Below are positions 2,305-8,858 of a DNA stretch of 64,000 bases, in pieces. Each line of letters begins with the position of its first letter. Positions within the stretch are counted from its first letter, which is position 1. Made by a program: the position numbers and the translations under genes. Source of the DNA: Escherichia phage vB_EcoM-PM133; sequence record MZ234052.1. The stretch is one strand, 5' to 3'. A model generated the notes under the pieces. It was given only the letters and a program-made list of their open reading frames with translations. It had not been told where the DNA came from and ran no database searches.

Positions 2305-4359
2305 ATGGAACTTATTACAGAATTATTTGACGAAGATACTACTCTTCCGATTACAAACTTAAATCCAAAGAAGAAAATACCGCAAATTTTTTCAGTTCAT
2401 GTTGATGATGCAATTGAACAACCAGGCTTTCGTTTATGTACCTATACATCTGGAGGTGATACTAATCGCGATTTAAAGATGGGCGATAAAATGATGCATA
2501 TTGTTCCTTTTACATTAACTGCTAAAGGTTCAATTGCTAAATTAAAAGGTCTTGGTCCAAGCCCAATTAATTATATCAATTCAGTTTTTACTGTTGCGAT
2601 GCAAACAATGCGTCAGTATAAAATTGATGCCTGTATGCTTCGTATTCTTAAGTCTAAAACCGCTGGTCAAGCTCGACAAATTCAAGTTATTGCTGATAGA
2701 CTTATCCGTAGTCGTTCAGGTGGCAGATACGTCCTTCTTAAGGAACTCTGGGATTACGATAAAAAGTATGCATATATTCTTATACATCGCAAAAATGTAT
2801 CACTAGAAGACATTCCGGGAGTTCCGGAAATTAGTACTGAGCTCTTTACTAAAGTTGAATCGAAGGTCGGTGATGTTTATATCAATAAAGATACTGGAGC
2901 TCAAGTAACTAAAAATGAGGCAATTGCAGCATCTATTGCGCAAGAAAATGATAAACGTTCTGACCAAGCTGTAATCGTTAAAGTTAAAATTTCCCGTAGA
3001 GCAATTGCGCAAAGTCAATCATTGGAATCTTCTAGATTTGAAACGCCGATGTTTCAAAAATTTGAGGCTTCAGCAGCAGAATTAAATAAACCTGCTGACG
3101 CTCCTTTAATTTCTGACGCTAATGAATTAACTGTTATTTCTACTTCAGGATTTGCATTAGAGAATGCTCTTAGTAGTGTTACAGCTGGAATGGCATTCAG
3201 AGAAGCTTCTATAATTCCTGAAGATAAAGAATCTGATGTTAATGCAGAAATAAAAAATAAAGCTTTAGAAAGATTACGAAAAGAATCTATTACTTCAATA
3301 AAAACTTTAGAAACTATTGCTTCTATAGTTGATGATACTTTAGAAAAATATAAAGGTGCTTGGTTAGAAAGAAACATTAACAAGCATTCGCATTTAAATC
3401 AAGATGCTGCGAATGAGTTAGTACAAAATTCTTGGAATGCAATAAAAACAAAGATTATTCGAAGAGAATTGCGTGGATATGCTCTTACCGCTGGATGGTC
3501 ACTACATCCTATAGTCGAAAATAAAGATTCATCTAAATACACACCGGCACAAAAACGCGGAATTCGTGAATACGTAAGTTCAGGATATGTAGACATAAAT
3601 AACGCTCTTTTGGGATTATATAATCCAGATGAGCGTACAAGTATTTTGACAGCATCTGATATAGAAAAAGCTATTGATAATTTAGATTCTGCCTTTAAAA
3701 ATGGTGAACGATTACCAAAAGGTATTACTTTGTATCGTTCACAACGAATGTTACCTTCAATATATGAAGCACTGGTAAAAAATCGAGTTTTTTATTTTAG
3801 AAATTTTGTGTCAACATCATTATATCCAAATATTTTTGGTACCTGGATGACTGATTCATCTGTGGGTGTTTTACCAGACGAAAAGCGTTTAAGTGTTTCT
3901 ATTGATAAAACTGATGAAGGACTAGTAAATTCTAGCGATAATTTAGTTGGAATTGGATGGGTTATTACTGGGGCTGATAAAGTCAATGTTGTTTTACCAG
4001 GTGGAAGTTTAGCACCTTCAAATGAAATGGAAGTCATTTTGCCACGTGGATTAATGGTCAAAGTTAATAAAATAACCGATGCATCTTACAATGATGGAAC
4101 AGTTAAAACTAACAACAAGCTTATTCAAGCTGAAGTTATGACCACAGAAGAACTCACCGAATCGGTAATTTATGACGGTGACCGTCTAATGGAAACCGGC
4201 GAAGTAGTTACAATGACAGGTGATATTGAAATAGAAGACAGAGTTGATTTTGCATCATTTGTTTCATCAAATGTTAAACAGAAAGTAGAATCATCTCTTG
4301 GAATTATTGCGTCTTGTATAGATATTGCAAACATGCCTTACAAGTTCGTTCAAGGATAA
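2305..4359 (+). CDS. alt: Alt-type ADP-ribosyltransferase (capsid-packaged, injected)
   Basis: about 684 aa; N-terminus MELITELFDE (protease-cleavable leader); R/STS/E ART motifs (LYRSQ, FVSTS, EVILPRG); SD GAGAGG before second ATG. Confidence 0.85.
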   Translation: MELITELFDEDTTLPITNLNPKKKIPQIFSVHVDDAIEQPGFRLCTYTSGGDTNRDLKMGDKMMHIVPFTLTAKGSIAKLKGLGPSPINYINSVFTVAMQTMRQYKIDACMLRILKSKTAGQARQIQVIADRLIRSRSGGRYVLLKELWDYDKKYAYILIHRKNVSLEDIPGVPEISTELFTKVESKVGDVYINKDTGAQVTKNEAIAASIAQENDKRSDQAVIVKVKISRRAIAQSQSLESSRFETPMFQKFEASAAELNKPADAPLISDANELTVISTSGFALENALSSVTAGMAFREASIIPEDKESDVNAEIKNKALERLRKESITSIKTLETIASIVDDTLEKYKGAWLERNINKHSHLNQDAANELVQNSWNAIKTKIIRRELRGYALTAGWSLHPIVENKDSSKYTPAQKRGIREYVSSGYVDINNALLGLYNPDERTSILTASDIEKAIDNLDSAFKNGERLPKGITLYRSQRMLPSIYEALVKNRVFYFRNFVSTSLYPNIFGTWMTDSSVGVLPDEKRLSVSIDKTDEGLVNSSDNLVGIGWVITGADKVNVVLPGGSLAPSNEMEVILPRGLMVKVNKITDASYNDGTVKTNNKLIQAEVMTTEELTESVIYDGDRLMETGEVVTMTGDIEIEDRVDFASFVSSNVKQKVESSLGIIASCIDIANMPYKFVQG

Positions 4360-4362
4360 ATC

Positions 4363-6420
4363 ATGGAACTTATTACAGAATTATTTGACGGCGCTTCGGC
4401 GCCGGTTGTTAACTTAAATCCTAAGCATAAAATACCACAAATTTTTGCTATTCAAGCCGGCGAAGAAAGCGTGCTTCCTGGATTTAGATTTTGTACATAC
4501 ACCTCTGGTGGTGATACGAATAAAAACGTTAAGCCAGGCGATAAAATGATGCATATCGTAATGATAGGTGTTAATGAGAAACTATCATTAGTTAAGCTTA
4601 AAAACTTGGGTGGAAATCCAATTGGTGTCATTAATGCCGTTTTTGATACTGCTCTTCAAACAATGAAACAGTATAAAATCGACGCATGCCTATTCCGCGT
4701 ACTAAAAAGTAAAACAAATGGCGCAGCTCGTCAAATGCAAGTTATTGCTGACCGTTTAGTACGTACTAAAGGAGCAGGTCGATATGTTCTTTTAAAGGAA
4801 ATCTGGGACTATGATAAGAAATATGCATATATTATGGTTTACCGTAAAAATGCCAATTTAGAAGACATTCCAGGTGTACCTCCTATTTCAACTGAGTTAT
4901 TCACAAAAGTTGAATCAAAGGTCGGTGATGTTTATGTAGACGTTAAAACAGGAAATGCTGTTCCTAAAGCTGTCGCTGTTGCTGCTTCTATTGCTTTAGA
5001 AAATGATAAGCGCACGGACCAAGCTGTTATTCAGAAAACTAAAATCAGTCGTCGATTAGCAGCACAAGCTCAATATTCTACTGTTGATGCTTCACTTCAG
5101 GGTGATAGCTTTGCTGCCAAGAAATATCAAGAGTTTGAATCTAAAGTTCCGGTATATAAAGCAGAAGGTCCGATGAACTCTGGCGTTATCCAGATTGGTT
5201 CAAACTTCAGCAAAGGAGCTATCGGTGGTATGAGAAGTGCTTCTCGTTTTAAATCTAACGATTATGAACTAGAAAGCTTCCGAAATCATATTGCATTGGC
5301 CCATGCACGTTTACGTGATCCATCTATCAAGTTGCAGAGCGATATAACATATCAAGGTTCTCAAGAATATTTAAAGAATAAAGAATTCTTTGATTATAAA
5401 ACTGATAAAATTTTAAGCGATCTTGCTGACATTAATATTTCTAATAGCTTTGATGTTATTAAGAAAATTATCAATGATTTGGTTAAAGGTTCTAAAGCCA
5501 CGCCAGATGAAAAGACAGCTATTATTCAATTTGTAATGAATGGCATTTATAAATTGATTAATGAATCTGCTGCCCAGGCATATGAATACGCAAGCACCGA
5601 AGTAGCTCCAAAAGGACTGACTCAGGCTGAATCTGATGTAATTGAAGATTATTGTGCAGATTCATATGTTGAAATGAACTCGTTCCTTTTGGGTAAACCA
5701 GATTCTACCCGTGAAGAATACATGGAACGAGCTATTAAGCACATCGAGACGTTAGATTCTGCCTTTGCCAAAGGATCAGTTCTTCCTCCAGGAACTACAC
5801 TTTACCGTGGGCAAGAAGTTACCTTTAAAACTTTGCGTCATAACATTGAAAATAAAATGTTCTATTTCAAGAACTTCGTATCCACATCGCTTAAACCAAA
5901 TATCTTCGGTGAGCATGGTAAAAACTATATGGCTCTAGATGATTCTGGCGCAGTATTTTCTGGCGAAGGAGAAGGTTCCGTTGATACAGAAGATTTGATG
6001 CATATGGGTAGTCATTCTACATATGCTAATGAAGATGCTGAAACTAGCGTGGGTATGGTAATTAAAGGAGCTGAGCGAATCAAAGTTATCGTTCCAGGTC
6101 ATTTATCAGGATTTCCATCAGAAGCTGAAGTTATTCTACCACGTGGAATTTTACTGAAGATTAATAAAGTAAGTACGTACTTTATGAAAGAAACTGCTTA
6201 TAACAAGTATCTAATCGAAGGTACAATCGTTCCTCCTTCTGAACAATTAGAAGAATCAGTATATGATGGAGACCATCTAATGGAAACTGGTGAAGTTCGT
6301 CCAATGGCTGGATTTAATCAATTCCTTGTAGAAGAATCAAAAGAAGAGGAAAATGAAGTTTCTCAAATCTTGGCTTCTTTGGTTAACATCAACGGAATGT
6401 CTAAAAAGTTCAAAATGTAG
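4363..6420 (+). CDS. second Alt-type ADP-ribosyltransferase (diverged tandem paralog)
   Basis: 685 aa; N-terminal ~200 aa closely similar to upstream Alt, central region unrelated, C-terminal ART motifs retained (LYRGQ, FVSTS, EVILPRG). Confidence 0.8.
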   Translation: MELITELFDGASAPVVNLNPKHKIPQIFAIQAGEESVLPGFRFCTYTSGGDTNKNVKPGDKMMHIVMIGVNEKLSLVKLKNLGGNPIGVINAVFDTALQTMKQYKIDACLFRVLKSKTNGAARQMQVIADRLVRTKGAGRYVLLKEIWDYDKKYAYIMVYRKNANLEDIPGVPPISTELFTKVESKVGDVYVDVKTGNAVPKAVAVAASIALENDKRTDQAVIQKTKISRRLAAQAQYSTVDASLQGDSFAAKKYQEFESKVPVYKAEGPMNSGVIQIGSNFSKGAIGGMRSASRFKSNDYELESFRNHIALAHARLRDPSIKLQSDITYQGSQEYLKNKEFFDYKTDKILSDLADINISNSFDVIKKIINDLVKGSKATPDEKTAIIQFVMNGIYKLINESAAQAYEYASTEVAPKGLTQAESDVIEDYCADSYVEMNSFLLGKPDSTREEYMERAIKHIETLDSAFAKGSVLPPGTTLYRGQEVTFKTLRHNIENKMFYFKNFVSTSLKPNIFGEHGKNYMALDDSGAVFSGEGEGSVDTEDLMHMGSHSTYANEDAETSVGMVIKGAERIKVIVPGHLSGFPSEAEVILPRGILLKINKVSTYFMKETAYNKYLIEGTIVPPSEQLEESVYDGDHLMETGEVRPMAGFNQFLVEESKEEENEVSQILASLVNINGMSKKFKM

Positions 6421-6480
6421 TTTACAAGTCCCTCGTGTTGTGTTATAGTAGTCTTACTGACATAACATGAGGAACACAAA

Positions 6481-6771
6481 ATGAAATCTTCTTTGCGCTT
6501 TTTAGGTCAAGAACTTGTAGTTGAAGGAGTTATTCCTGCTGATAACGTTTTTAATGAAGCAGTTTATGATGAATTTATCAAAATTTTTGGAACAGATAAA
6601 AAGTTCGGAATTTTTCCTTCTGAAAATTTTTCAAAGCCAGAACAGACTGAAAGTATTTTCCAAGGTGTAGTAACAGGTAAATTTGAGTCAGAAGCTCCGG
6701 TAAAAATTGAGGTTTATATTGAAGAAACCTCTGTTGCTTCAGTTGCTGCTTTTATTTCATTCCGTAAATAA
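6481..6771 (+). CDS. hypothetical protein
   Basis: 96-aa ORF followed by bidirectional terminator. Confidence 0.5.
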   Translation: MKSSLRFLGQELVVEGVIPADNVFNEAVYDEFIKIFGTDKKFGIFPSENFSKPEQTESIFQGVVTGKFESEAPVKIEVYIEETSVASVAAFISFRK

Positions 6772-6773
6772 AA

Positions 6774-6797
6774 TATGGGGACCTTTCGGTCCCCATT
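6774..6797. terminator. bidirectional terminator hairpin (GGGGACC tttc GGTCCCC) between convergent genes
   Basis: perfect GC-rich stem, A/T-rich on both flanks. Confidence 0.55.
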
Positions 6798-6798
6798 G

Positions 6799-7764
6799 TT
6801 ATATTGCTCCTAATATTTTACTTTGCGAATTGACAATTCCTGTCATAGTATTAATATTTGAAATGCTTCCTGCAGTTCCCCCTAATCTACTAAGTCGTGA
6901 AAGCGAATTAGATAGTCCAGTAACACCTCCACTATTTCCGAGAACGCTTTGAATACCATTTATAGTAGCAGATTCAAGCCATTCAAGGGCAGCTTGTCTA
7001 TCAACTGCTCCAGCCTGCATCACTCTATACGCAAAAGTAACATCAAATGTAGTTATTTGGTTATCTCCATCATATGATAACTCAGGAGCGCTTACGGACA
7101 CTGGAATGCATCCAGTGAACATCACCGCAGTATGTGGTAATCCATTGCGAGAATGAAGATTAACCTGAATATCTGCCTCGACATCTTGCGGCAAAGCACG
7201 CAATCCAGTTACTGGGTCTTGAACAGCGTTAACCCAGTCTTGCATTGCACGATAGTTACAAGCTTCTGAATCCATTCTGAATGAAATAACCAAAGGGTCT
7301 AATTCTCTCCCAGTTATACGAATATTAGGAGAATTATAGTTCCAGTCAGTTTCATAGGATAATCTATTCTCTGGCATTTTTACAGAGTATATCATCAATC
7401 CAGATGAGTTATATGCCATGTTAAAGAAGTCAATTAAATATGTACCAACTGTAAATGAGCCTAATAAACTTTGAACTGTACGTTGACTCATGGCACCAAT
7501 AAGATATTTACTAACCCCTGATTTTCTTATCAGTTTTTGTGTGCCAGCTGTAATTAGCGTAGTAATTCCCTGATTAATATCGCCTTGAGTTAATCCTAAC
7601 CAATCTGAATTTAGGCCCAAGTTATTATAAGAAAAGTTGCTAATTGAACTTATCAACGAAGAGCTTTTAGTTGATGGAGTTGTAGCAAAAACACAGCTGA
7701 ACATATTATTACGTTGGAAATCTGCGTTTATTGCTTGATTATTAAATTCCTCTAAAGAATACAT
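6799..7764 (-). CDS. 54: baseplate tail-tube initiator (T4 gp54-like)
   Basis: 321 aa, synteny alt/54/48/29. Confidence 0.85.
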   Translation of the reverse strand: MYSLEEFNNQAINADFQRNNMFSCVFATTPSTKSSSLISSISNFSYNNLGLNSDWLGLTQGDINQGITTLITAGTQKLIRKSGVSKYLIGAMSQRTVQSLLGSFTVGTYLIDFFNMAYNSSGLMIYSVKMPENRLSYETDWNYNSPNIRITGRELDPLVISFRMDSEACNYRAMQDWVNAVQDPVTGLRALPQDVEADIQVNLHSRNGLPHTAVMFTGCIPVSVSAPELSYDGDNQITTFDVTFAYRVMQAGAVDRQAALEWLESATINGIQSVLGNSGGVTGLSNSLSRLSRLGGTAGSISNINTMTGIVNSQSKILGAI

Positions 7765-8858
7765 TAAAAAGTCCCCGCATATAAAGAAGCACGGTTTAAC
7801 GTGATAATTTCTCTCATAGTAATCTCGAGAGTAAATGTACTAGGGAGATTTGGAGCAATAGCTAATCCGTTAAAGTTACCATTAGGTGTTTTATCAAATC
7901 TGATACTCTGGATTTGACATGGACCGAATATTTCCGTTTTTCCATCAAACTTAGATGTTGCACCAAAGTTTTTCACCATCCAAATTGTCGGGTTTGAAAC
8001 TACAAGAACGTTAGTTAAACTCGATGTCATTTTCTCAAATAACGTCTTATTTTTAACTGCATCTTCTGGAGTTAACGGCTCAATAAAAGTAGAACGGTAC
8101 CACTCATCTAAATATCCTTTTATTTCAGCAGCATATTGAGATTTACCAGTTTCACCGTAAGAAAAATAGTTAAAATACTGATAGATATTAATAATAGCCA
8201 TTAAATCTTCTGTTGAGCGCGGAGTCAAATCCCAAGTGAACACTTTAGTTCTATTTTCAGCACCGCCGTACATGCTTCTGGCTGTCGTATAAATCTGTTC
8301 ATTATTATCAGCCATTATACCTTGTGTTATACTTTCCAGCGCTCCAAATACTGCGGTTGAAGCCATATTGCTTAGCACACCAGTAGCAGTACCTCCACCT
8401 TTTGTAATAAGACTATCTTGAACATCATTAAATCTATGTGATGACGTATCGACGTCAGATTTAGATCTAGGTAAAAGAATATTTGCAACAGGAACTTTAC
8501 TTATTTTTCCTGAATTATTATCTGATATTAGTCCATTTGATAGTTTTGATACTGTATTACTGATAGTGTTTCTGGCTGTACGTAAAATACTCGAAGATGA
8601 AGAAGAGTAGTTAGATCTCATCGTTCTAAGACTTCCAGAATCCCTAGATGACATATTGTATGCAGTAAATAATAATCCATTCTTATATAGATCTGTTACC
8701 TGGAAGTCCCCTGTAGTGTCATTACCACTAGCACGCCCAGTTGGAAACTGGGCTGTGTATGTTTTAGTTCCTACTTCTGATTTAGTACTCTGTCCGGCTG
8801 AAATTGTTTCACCGGACTTTTTAATTAAATCAGCAGTTATTTCTTTAACAATTGCCAT
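7764..8858 (-). CDS. 48: baseplate tail-tube cap (T4 gp48-like)
   Basis: 364 aa, synteny. Confidence 0.85.
   Translation of the reverse strand: MAIVKEITADLIKKSGETISAGQSTKSEVGTKTYTAQFPTGRASGNDTTGDFQVTDLYKNGLLFTAYNMSSRDSGSLRTMRSNYSSSSSSILRTARNTISNTVSKLSNGLISDNNSGKISKVPVANILLPRSKSDVDTSSHRFNDVQDSLITKGGGTATGVLSNMASTAVFGALESITQGIMADNNEQIYTTARSMYGGAENRTKVFTWDLTPRSTEDLMAIINIYQYFNYFSYGETGKSQYAAEIKGYLDEWYRSTFIEPLTPEDAVKNKTLFEKMTSSLTNVLVVSNPTIWMVKNFGATSKFDGKTEIFGPCQIQSIRFDKTPNGNFNGLAIAPNLPSTFTLEITMREIITLNRASLYAGTF

Follow-up and report, generated by a model that had tools for sequence, protein, structure and literature searches.

Why should a T4-like phage carry, side by side, two full-length genes for the Alt ADP-ribosyltransferase, an enzyme for which T4 has only one, and do the two enzymes have the same business in the infected cell? 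The question is raised by a 64,000-nucleotide (nt) stretch of Escherichia phage vB_EcoM-PM133 (MZ234052.1; hereafter the window, whose numbering we use throughout and on whose + strand all features lie unless we say otherwise). Two adjacent genes there, which we call copy 1 (2305-4359, 684 amino acids, aa) and copy 2 (4363-6420, 685 aa), encode proteins of the T4 Alt kind. Judged by sequence, copy 1 is alt, in the T4-type allele, and copy 2 is its ancient full-length paralog, alt.-2; the tandem pair is clearly the usual T-even state, and T4, a natural alt.-2 deletion variant rather than the ancestral state, is the exception. Copy 2 is most likely a second packaged, injected enzyme, and we consider it highly probable that this is a two-gene T-even alt locus in which both genes work, by the mechanism set out below.

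It should be said at once that the locus is an ordinary, annotated T-even feature and not a new one: the arrangement is already known, it is annotated in hundreds of genomes, and the duplication has been in print since 2006. Why, then, write about it? Nearly all that is known of injected ADP-ribosyltransferases was learned from T4, a phage that is itself, by nature, a deletion mutant for the second enzyme.

Two Diverged Proteins of One Family

How alike are the two proteins? A first-pass annotation, made from the letters alone, had described them as tandem, diverged paralogs of 684-685 aa, and both the sizes and the kinship are borne out: the genes run from 2302/2305 to 4359 and from 4363 to 6420, and BLASTP aligns their products with E = 1e-158 and 41% identity overall. 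(The open reading frame, ORF, of copy 1 has two adjacent in-frame ATGs, at 2302 and 2305, giving 685 or 684 aa; the one at 2305 yields MELITE, is the start annotated in T4, and has a GAGG Shine–Dalgarno sequence 6 nt away.) Both proteins start MELITELFD, and the shared N-terminal part, which the first-pass annotation had put at some 200 residues, covers residues 1-238 at 68% identity (2305-3018 in copy 1 and 4363-5076 in copy 2) and has an alpha/beta fold common to both. Identity is 11-12% in residues 239-413, 37-38% in the catalytic domain (residues 414-625), and 42% in the C-terminal tail.

The middle of each protein is all helical (residues 239-405, 3019-3519, in copy 1; residues 239-413, 5077-5601, in copy 2, as read from an AlphaFold model), and that of copy 2 is diagnostic for alt.-2. 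Between the copies, these regions gave no BLASTP match below E = 0.1, and a profile–profile comparison with hhalign, on small class-specific alignments, returned no similarity (probability 0.8%, E = 0.069). Remote homology of the two middles, which we considered as a candidate, thus finds no support in either search. The earlier claim that the centers are unrelated stands as far as similarity goes; its extent of about 250 residues shrinks to about 175.

It is in the catalytic domains (3520-4164 in copy 1 and 5602-6255 in copy 2) that one would look for decay, and the residues that matter are retained in both copies. In copy 1, the Arg / Ser-Thr-Ser / Glu-x-Glu site consists of R478 (3736-3738), STS 503-505 (3811-3819), and E574-M-E576 (4024-4032); in copy 2, it consists of R482 (5806-5808), STS 507-509 (5881-5889), and E587-A-E589 (6121-6129). 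These positions are invariant across the 34 members of our family alignment, which bears out the signature read in both proteins at first pass and reveals no loss of a catalytic residue in either; copy 2 also keeps the surrounding motifs of the pocket for nicotinamide adenine dinucleotide (NAD), Y430, N439, and F500-Y-F502. Pfam PF03496 (ADPrib_exo_Tox) lies above its curated cut-off in both (E = 5.6e-35 for copy 1 and 4.9e-20 for copy 2, the latter at 72 bits against a cut-off of 23.4). The domains do differ around the loop after the STS motif, where the insertions are other ones, and their surface loops are unlike.

By domain, catalytic, N-terminal, motif, and position criteria, both proteins belong to the T4 Alt family (PHROG 802; PF26846 and PF03496). 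Identity to T4 Alt (NP_049811) is 98% for copy 1; for copy 2, it is 41% overall and 68% over residues 1-238. Both match phrog_802, copy 2 over its full length with E = 2.5e-256, and a precomputed match to PF26846 (Tevenvirinae_ADPRT) exists for family members that include a 99%-identical cluster representative (P0001). Measured against T4 Alt, then, copy 2 has the same length, N-terminal domain, two sites for the head protease (gene product 21, gp21), R / STS / ExE site, and place between gene 30 and gene 54, and it differs in the middle (11-12% identity) and in the catalytic domain (38%, with other loop insertions).

The AlphaFold model of copy 2 has a mean predicted local distance difference test score (pLDDT) of 75 and consists of an N-terminal alpha/beta domain, the all-helical middle, and a C-terminal catalytic domain; its best match among viral models is the full-length Alt of Shigella phage SP18 (template modeling scores, or TM-scores, of 0.70/0.77 over 672 columns). 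Among solved structures, sequence search returned none for copy 2 and, for copy 1, weak matches to CdtA only (E about 0.01).

T4 as a Deletion Variant

If two genes are the rule, what became of the second one in T4? The first-pass statement that T4 has one full alt followed by small ORFs agrees with the T4 map, and it is the DNA of alt.-1 and alt.-2 that is instructive. It matches window positions 4363-4701 at 328 of 338 bases (97%), with one base, that at 4522, missing; this 1-bp loss splits the T4 remnant into alt.-1 and alt.-2. The T4 sequence then resumes at 6401, the junction falling in the DNA alignment at a common CTAAAAAGT repeat. T4 has thus retained the first 338 nt of copy 2, with a frameshift, and its last 20 nt (6401-6420) of a gene that is intact, at 2,058 bp, in the window.

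With 97% DNA identity to the opening 338 nt of copy 2, alt.-1/alt.-2 are the deletion remnant of that gene. Both T4 break points are copies of CTAAAAAGT, a 9-bp direct repeat present at 4702-4710 (the left end of the T4 deletion) and at 6401-6409 (the right end), so that T4 has lost 1,699 bp by deletion between short direct repeats. Since the remnant is so nearly identical to the intact gene, the truncation is no older than ordinary divergence among these phages; the duplication itself, unlike the T4 truncation, is to be read as ancient. The T4-type deletion junction is common to 91 records. Copy 2 is also the best match to the two PHROGs that were built on T4 alt.-1/alt.-2 (phrog_23015, E = 2.2e-40; phrog_15247, E = 3.2e-38).

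Others have been here before us. The T4 GenBank record itself traces alt.-1 and alt.-2 to a duplicated initial portion of alt, and Nolan et al. in 2006 derived alt.-1/alt.-2 from an alt duplication and noted that phage 44RR has a duplicate of alt at full length (PMC1524935).

Distribution of the Pair

How usual is the usual state? The unique middle of copy 2 (window 5050-5650) occurs at at least 90% identity in 401 phage records, among them T2, RB3, RB14, RB33, and PP01, and the copy 2 protein is 95-100% identical to alt.-2 of T2, RB14, BF15, and FL34. Some 400 of the deposited Tequatrovirus genomes have both genes intact, about four-fifths of the genomes of that genus by record counts, counts that come from a redundant database with many near-identical isolates and several T4 resequencings and that do not equal independent lineages. 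Dhakavirus JS10 (L009; the pair at 3913-8124) and one metagenome contig have the same layout of ligase, alt, alt, alt.-3, and gene 54.

The novelty that the first-pass annotation implied did not survive these findings. It had reasoned that the same tandem in T4 would make the arrangement conserved rather than novel, and that is essentially what the T4 remnant, the Tequatrovirus genomes, and JS10 amount to. Nor has the pair escaped the annotators: the RB14 record names the full-length gene alt.-2, RefSeq calls both genes "Alt-like RNA polymerase ADP-ribosyltransferase," and other records annotate the pair as "Alt-like RNA polymerase ADP-ribosyltransferase (x2)" or as "alt.-2."

On the metagenome contig (L008), the tandem pair is more divergent, the second copy being 74% identical to copy 2 of the window.

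Selection and Age

Has the second gene been kept because it is used, or is it only on its way out? Copy 2 is under strong purifying selection. Its orthologs are intact at 685 codons in all five genomes compared (the window, T2, RB14, BF15, and FL34), with pairwise synonymous divergence (dS) of 0.14-0.25 and a ratio of nonsynonymous to synonymous divergence (dN/dS) of 0.03-0.06; by region, dN/dS is 0.05-0.13 in the middle and 0.02-0.07 in the catalytic domain. Of the marks of a decaying gene, namely frameshift, stop, truncation, and relaxed selection, copy 2 has none.

The two copies have been apart for a long time, as synonymous sites between them are saturated over the full length (proportion of synonymous differences, pS, 0.54-0.71), and the similar N-terminal domain is no exception (pS 0.64 in residues 1-238). 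That saturation indicates that the N-terminal likeness is maintained at the level of the protein and does not come from recent gene conversion, a source that we considered and that the same pS of 0.64 excludes for the recent past. Across genera, it is position in the pair that decides which middles, catalytic domains, and tails cluster together; for the N-terminal domains, it is the genome, with the copies 68% alike in the window and 65% in JS10 and positional counterparts in different genera 42-47% alike. Because the JS10 N-terminal domains are closer to each other than to their window counterparts, an older homogenization, or replacement, of the N-terminal packaging domain is suggested.

Proposed Expression and Packaging of Both Proteins

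What would a second Alt have to do to be of use to the phage? About 40 copies of T4 Alt are present per head, in the prohead core (PMC9026906), and the protein is injected with the DNA (PMC9026906, PMC5512222), having been cleaved by gp21 after ITE-6 and LTE-619 (PMC5694885). Once inside, it ADP-ribosylates host proteins, the alpha subunit of RNA polymerase among them (PMC5512222), targets that are known for T4 Alt alone. The glutamate mutant of Alt published as "E577A" is inactive (PMC11404850); that numbering is probably offset by one, and we count the motif glutamates at 574 and 576.

The gp21 cleavage motifs are present at aligned positions in both copies: ITE 4-6 near each N terminus (2314-2322 and 4372-4380), and, at the end of each catalytic domain, LTE 617-619 in copy 1 (4153-4161, where T4 Alt is cut; PMC5694885) and LEE 629-631 in copy 2 (6247-6255), which aligns with the LTE-619 site. 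Beyond LEE, the C-terminal tail of copy 2 (6256-6417) is a probable propeptide, with low pLDDT at residues 629-662 and with a family-invariant Y-D-G-D...E.GE and terminal KF; across 34 sequences, its invariant columns are Y634, D635, G636, D637, E641, G643, E644, K682, and F683. There are hints that the C-terminal propeptide may have a specific role, as a prohead-core tether, for example. Some of the residues best conserved in the whole family lie in the C-terminal stretch that gp21 cuts from T4 Alt (window 4162-4356 and, in copy 2, 6256-6417).

The genes are also placed as if they were meant to be read together. Positions 2274-2281 hold a late promoter box of the T4 type, TATAAATA, which is 23 nt 5' of the alt start and is the sole such box ahead of either alt gene; a pattern search gave no further TATAAATA between 2282 and 13055. 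(In the 64-kb window as a whole, the box occurs 24 times against 9.8 expected, a number that none of 100 shuffles reached, in keeping with a window made up mostly of late structural genes.) The stop of copy 1 is separated from the ATG of copy 2 by 3 nt, a Shine–Dalgarno AAGGA for copy 2 can be read within the 3' end of copy 1 (4350-4354), and a scan of the + strand gave no terminator-like site between copy 1 and copy 2. Between the convergent alt.-3 and gene 54, a GC-rich hairpin with a 9-bp stem (6775-6796), terminator-like in score on both strands, probably ends the alt transcription unit.

The sole late box, the 3-nt gap, the separate ribosome-binding site, the lack of a + strand terminator, and the kept gp21 motifs together point to one late transcript and two packaged, processed enzymes. 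We would imagine the events as follows. The genes alt and alt.-2 would be transcribed late, most likely as a single unit from the promoter at 2274-2281, with a separate ribosome-binding site serving the translation of each copy. Entry into the prohead core would depend, for both proteins, on the shared N-terminal domain and terminal propeptides, and gp21 would trim both behind ITE-6 and behind L-x-E, the latter being LTE-619 in copy 1 and LEE-631 in copy 2. Both would then be injected with the DNA and would modify host proteins at arginines, with NAD+ as the donor of ADP-ribose and by means of the intact Arg / Ser-Thr-Ser / Glu-x-Glu site. The two enzymes would probably act on partly different host proteins, because the helical middle of some 175 residues and much of the catalytic domain differ. 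What the sequences show, in short, is how the genes are built, their homology and conserved motifs, the purifying selection, the spread among phages, and the T4 deletion; co-transcription we infer, and likewise what is said of copy 2 as a packaged, cut, injected, and active enzyme and of the targets that it has.

Same or Different Targets?

A distinct target set for alt.-2, as suggested at first pass, is plausible: middles with no similarity and catalytic domains with differing surface loops fit different substrates. One can go further and imagine alt.-2 as a second capsid-delivered ADP-ribosyltransferase whose substrates are other than those of Alt (a component of defense or translation, for example) and which has gone unstudied because T4 deleted the gene, within a modular effector system that has a genome-specific packaging domain and cassettes moving between genera; this fuller picture we hold tentatively, as somewhat less than an even bet. 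Several points speak against our account, and they should be gathered in one place. The gene is dispensable in some lineages, in that T4 and about 90 other records are without copy 2 and Yersinia phage PST and Escherichia phage ECML-134 are without the effector part of copy 1, all of which is compatible with overlapping functions. The AlphaFold models, which we compared by secondary-structure strings and which are not independent of each other, both input alignments having held both classes, place a very similar series of helices in the middle of both proteins, so that to speak of a "different domain" may overstate the difference when the predicted helix patterns are so alike. Our literature searches found no proteomic or biochemical paper on copy 2, no reported substrates of alt.-2, and, on the function of the second Alt, only the remark made in comparative genomics in 2006; alt is not mentioned in Petrov 2010. 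Finally, the redundancy of the record counts, noted above, belongs on this side of the scale.

Might copy 2, then, be just a back-up, packaged and active on the same host targets (chiefly the RNA polymerase alpha subunit), so that either gene can be lost cheaply? Both losses have occurred in nature, the T4-type phages having lost the effector part of copy 2 and PST and ECML-134 that of copy 1, and this reciprocal loss keeps partial redundancy a serious rival; the catalytic residues are identical in both copies, the overall fold and the helix pattern of the middle are predicted to be alike, and T4 alt is nonessential (PMC9026906). A mere back-up, however, would not be expected to stay under strong purifying selection in both copies (dN/dS 0.03-0.06), across genera, through all the time since a duplication so old that synonymous sites are saturated, nor do middles that share 11-12% identity without profile-level similarity, or catalytic domains just 38% identical with different insertions after the STS motif, look like duplicates of one function, and we regard the idea as rather unlikely. 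Far less likely is that copy 2 has ceased to be an enzyme and persists as a structural or scaffolding part of the head core. Alt has been described as a core protein besides being an enzyme (PMC11404850), and the part best conserved between the copies is the noncatalytic N-terminal domain; against this stand the retention of every catalytic residue (R482, S507, T508, S509, E587, and E589) and of the NAD-pocket motifs, a dN/dS in the catalytic domain that is the lowest of the divergent regions (0.02-0.07), and a Pfam ADP-ribosyltransferase score well above cut-off (72 vs. 23.4 bits). As for the pair having arisen only lately, by duplication in the lineage of this phage alone, or being an artefact of its assembly, two ORFs of near-equal length, 3 nt apart and with the same first nine residues, might well bring it to mind, and we give it next to no credence: synonymous sites between the copies are saturated, the 4.9-kb region is at least 99% identical in 21 independent records and at least 80% covered in 377, JS10 has the pair as well, and T4 has the remnant. 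On these grounds, recent origin and artefact were both rejected.

Exchanged Cassettes and Fusion Genes

Our preferred reading, two working enzymes with partly different targets, invites the question of how the effector parts came to differ. Copy 1 itself exists in at least two alleles, the T4 type (the window and T4; 174 records) and a T2 type of 697 aa (T2, RB14, BF15, and FL34; 324 records). Their proteins are identical in residues 1-238 and 94-99% identical in the tail, with 33% identity in the middle and 65% in the catalytic domain. At the DNA level, the T2-type gene (L003, 417-2510) is 95-99% identical to the T4-type allele of the window in residues 1-240 and 637-697, and over residues from about 400 to 600, it is 83-95% identical to the first Alt of Dhakavirus JS10 (L009, 3913-5997). 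The N-terminal domains of the T2-type alt and the JS10 first Alt are about 47% identical in protein. The T2-type alt is thus a mosaic, which indicates that a cassette was exchanged between genera.

Two phages have carried recombination at the locus a step further. In PST (L007, 2511-4571), there is a single alt gene, in which the N terminus of copy 1 is fused to the rest of copy 2 with the crossover near residue 103; in ECML-134 (L010, 2242-4302, minus strand), a single copy 1/copy 2 fusion gene has its crossover near residue 157. Since the crossover points differ, these are two independent unequal crossovers within the conserved N-terminal domain. The PST-type fusion is not widespread, its junction having been found in PST records only.

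Taken together, the alleles suggest a packaging module kept similar within a genome and effector cassettes exchanged by recombination, which is typical phage mosaicism and unusually clear here. Evolution at this locus would then be modular (the packaging module conserved, the effector modules open to exchange, and losses recurring through deletion or unequal crossover), and the alt locus would be a convenient system in which to ask how phages diversify the proteins that they inject.

Relation to Other ADP-Ribosyltransferases

T4 ModA and ModB, early proteins of about 200 aa that stay out of the head, are catalytic domain and nothing else. They belong to the same R-S-E clade of ADP-ribosyltransferases, which comprises the Alt/VIP2 and Mod families (PMC5512222, PMC9503650); both window proteins, set against these descriptions, carry an N-terminal extension of about 410 residues and Alt-type propeptides. 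The bacterial enzymes (Vis, C3bot, iota/CDTa, VIP2, Certhrax, and SpvB) share just 14-26% identity with the Alt proteins and are without the N-terminal domain for targeting to the phage head; they are delivered by secretion or a translocon, whereas the Alt proteins travel in the capsid. A parallel in logic is the other head cargo processed by gp21, in which a short N-terminal propeptide ending in (L/I)-x-Glu is removed and the cargo, variable among phages, is packaged and injected (PMC9026906). There is no sequence kinship with that cargo, however, and what the Alt proteins have in addition is an N-terminal domain, large and conserved, and a propeptide at the C terminus.

The Neighborhood of the Pair

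The source of the window is a T4-like phage of the genus Tequatrovirus, and over the 4.9-kb region it has 99.9% identity to Escherichia phage vB_EcoM-CHD16UKE1. Gene order is that of the T4 map apart from the second Alt ORF, and both copies keep the position of the family, that is, gene 30, alt.1, alt, and so on to alt.-3 and gene 54, with the late promoter present. Upstream lies gene 30 for DNA ligase (604-2067), followed directly by a homologue of alt.1 (2064-2252, 62 aa; Pfam PF24647, Phage_blade, E = 1.9e-29) in the T4 alt.1 position. Immediately past the alt.-2 stop, ahead of alt.-3, a promoter scan picked out a good sigma-70-like match (6421-6449) with TTTACA, a 17-nt spacer, TATAGT, and an upstream TG. 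The alt.-3 homologue itself (6481-6771, 96 aa, DUF5498) matches Pfam PF17602 with E = 1.7e-61 and agrees with the T4 map; beyond it, genes 54, 48, and 29 lie on the opposite strand. The strand opposite the two Alt genes holds short ORFs only, of at most 109 aa.

In the metagenome contig mentioned earlier, a 240-nt gap (L008, 2001-2242) separates the ligase gene from the first alt, and no alt.1 is called in it.

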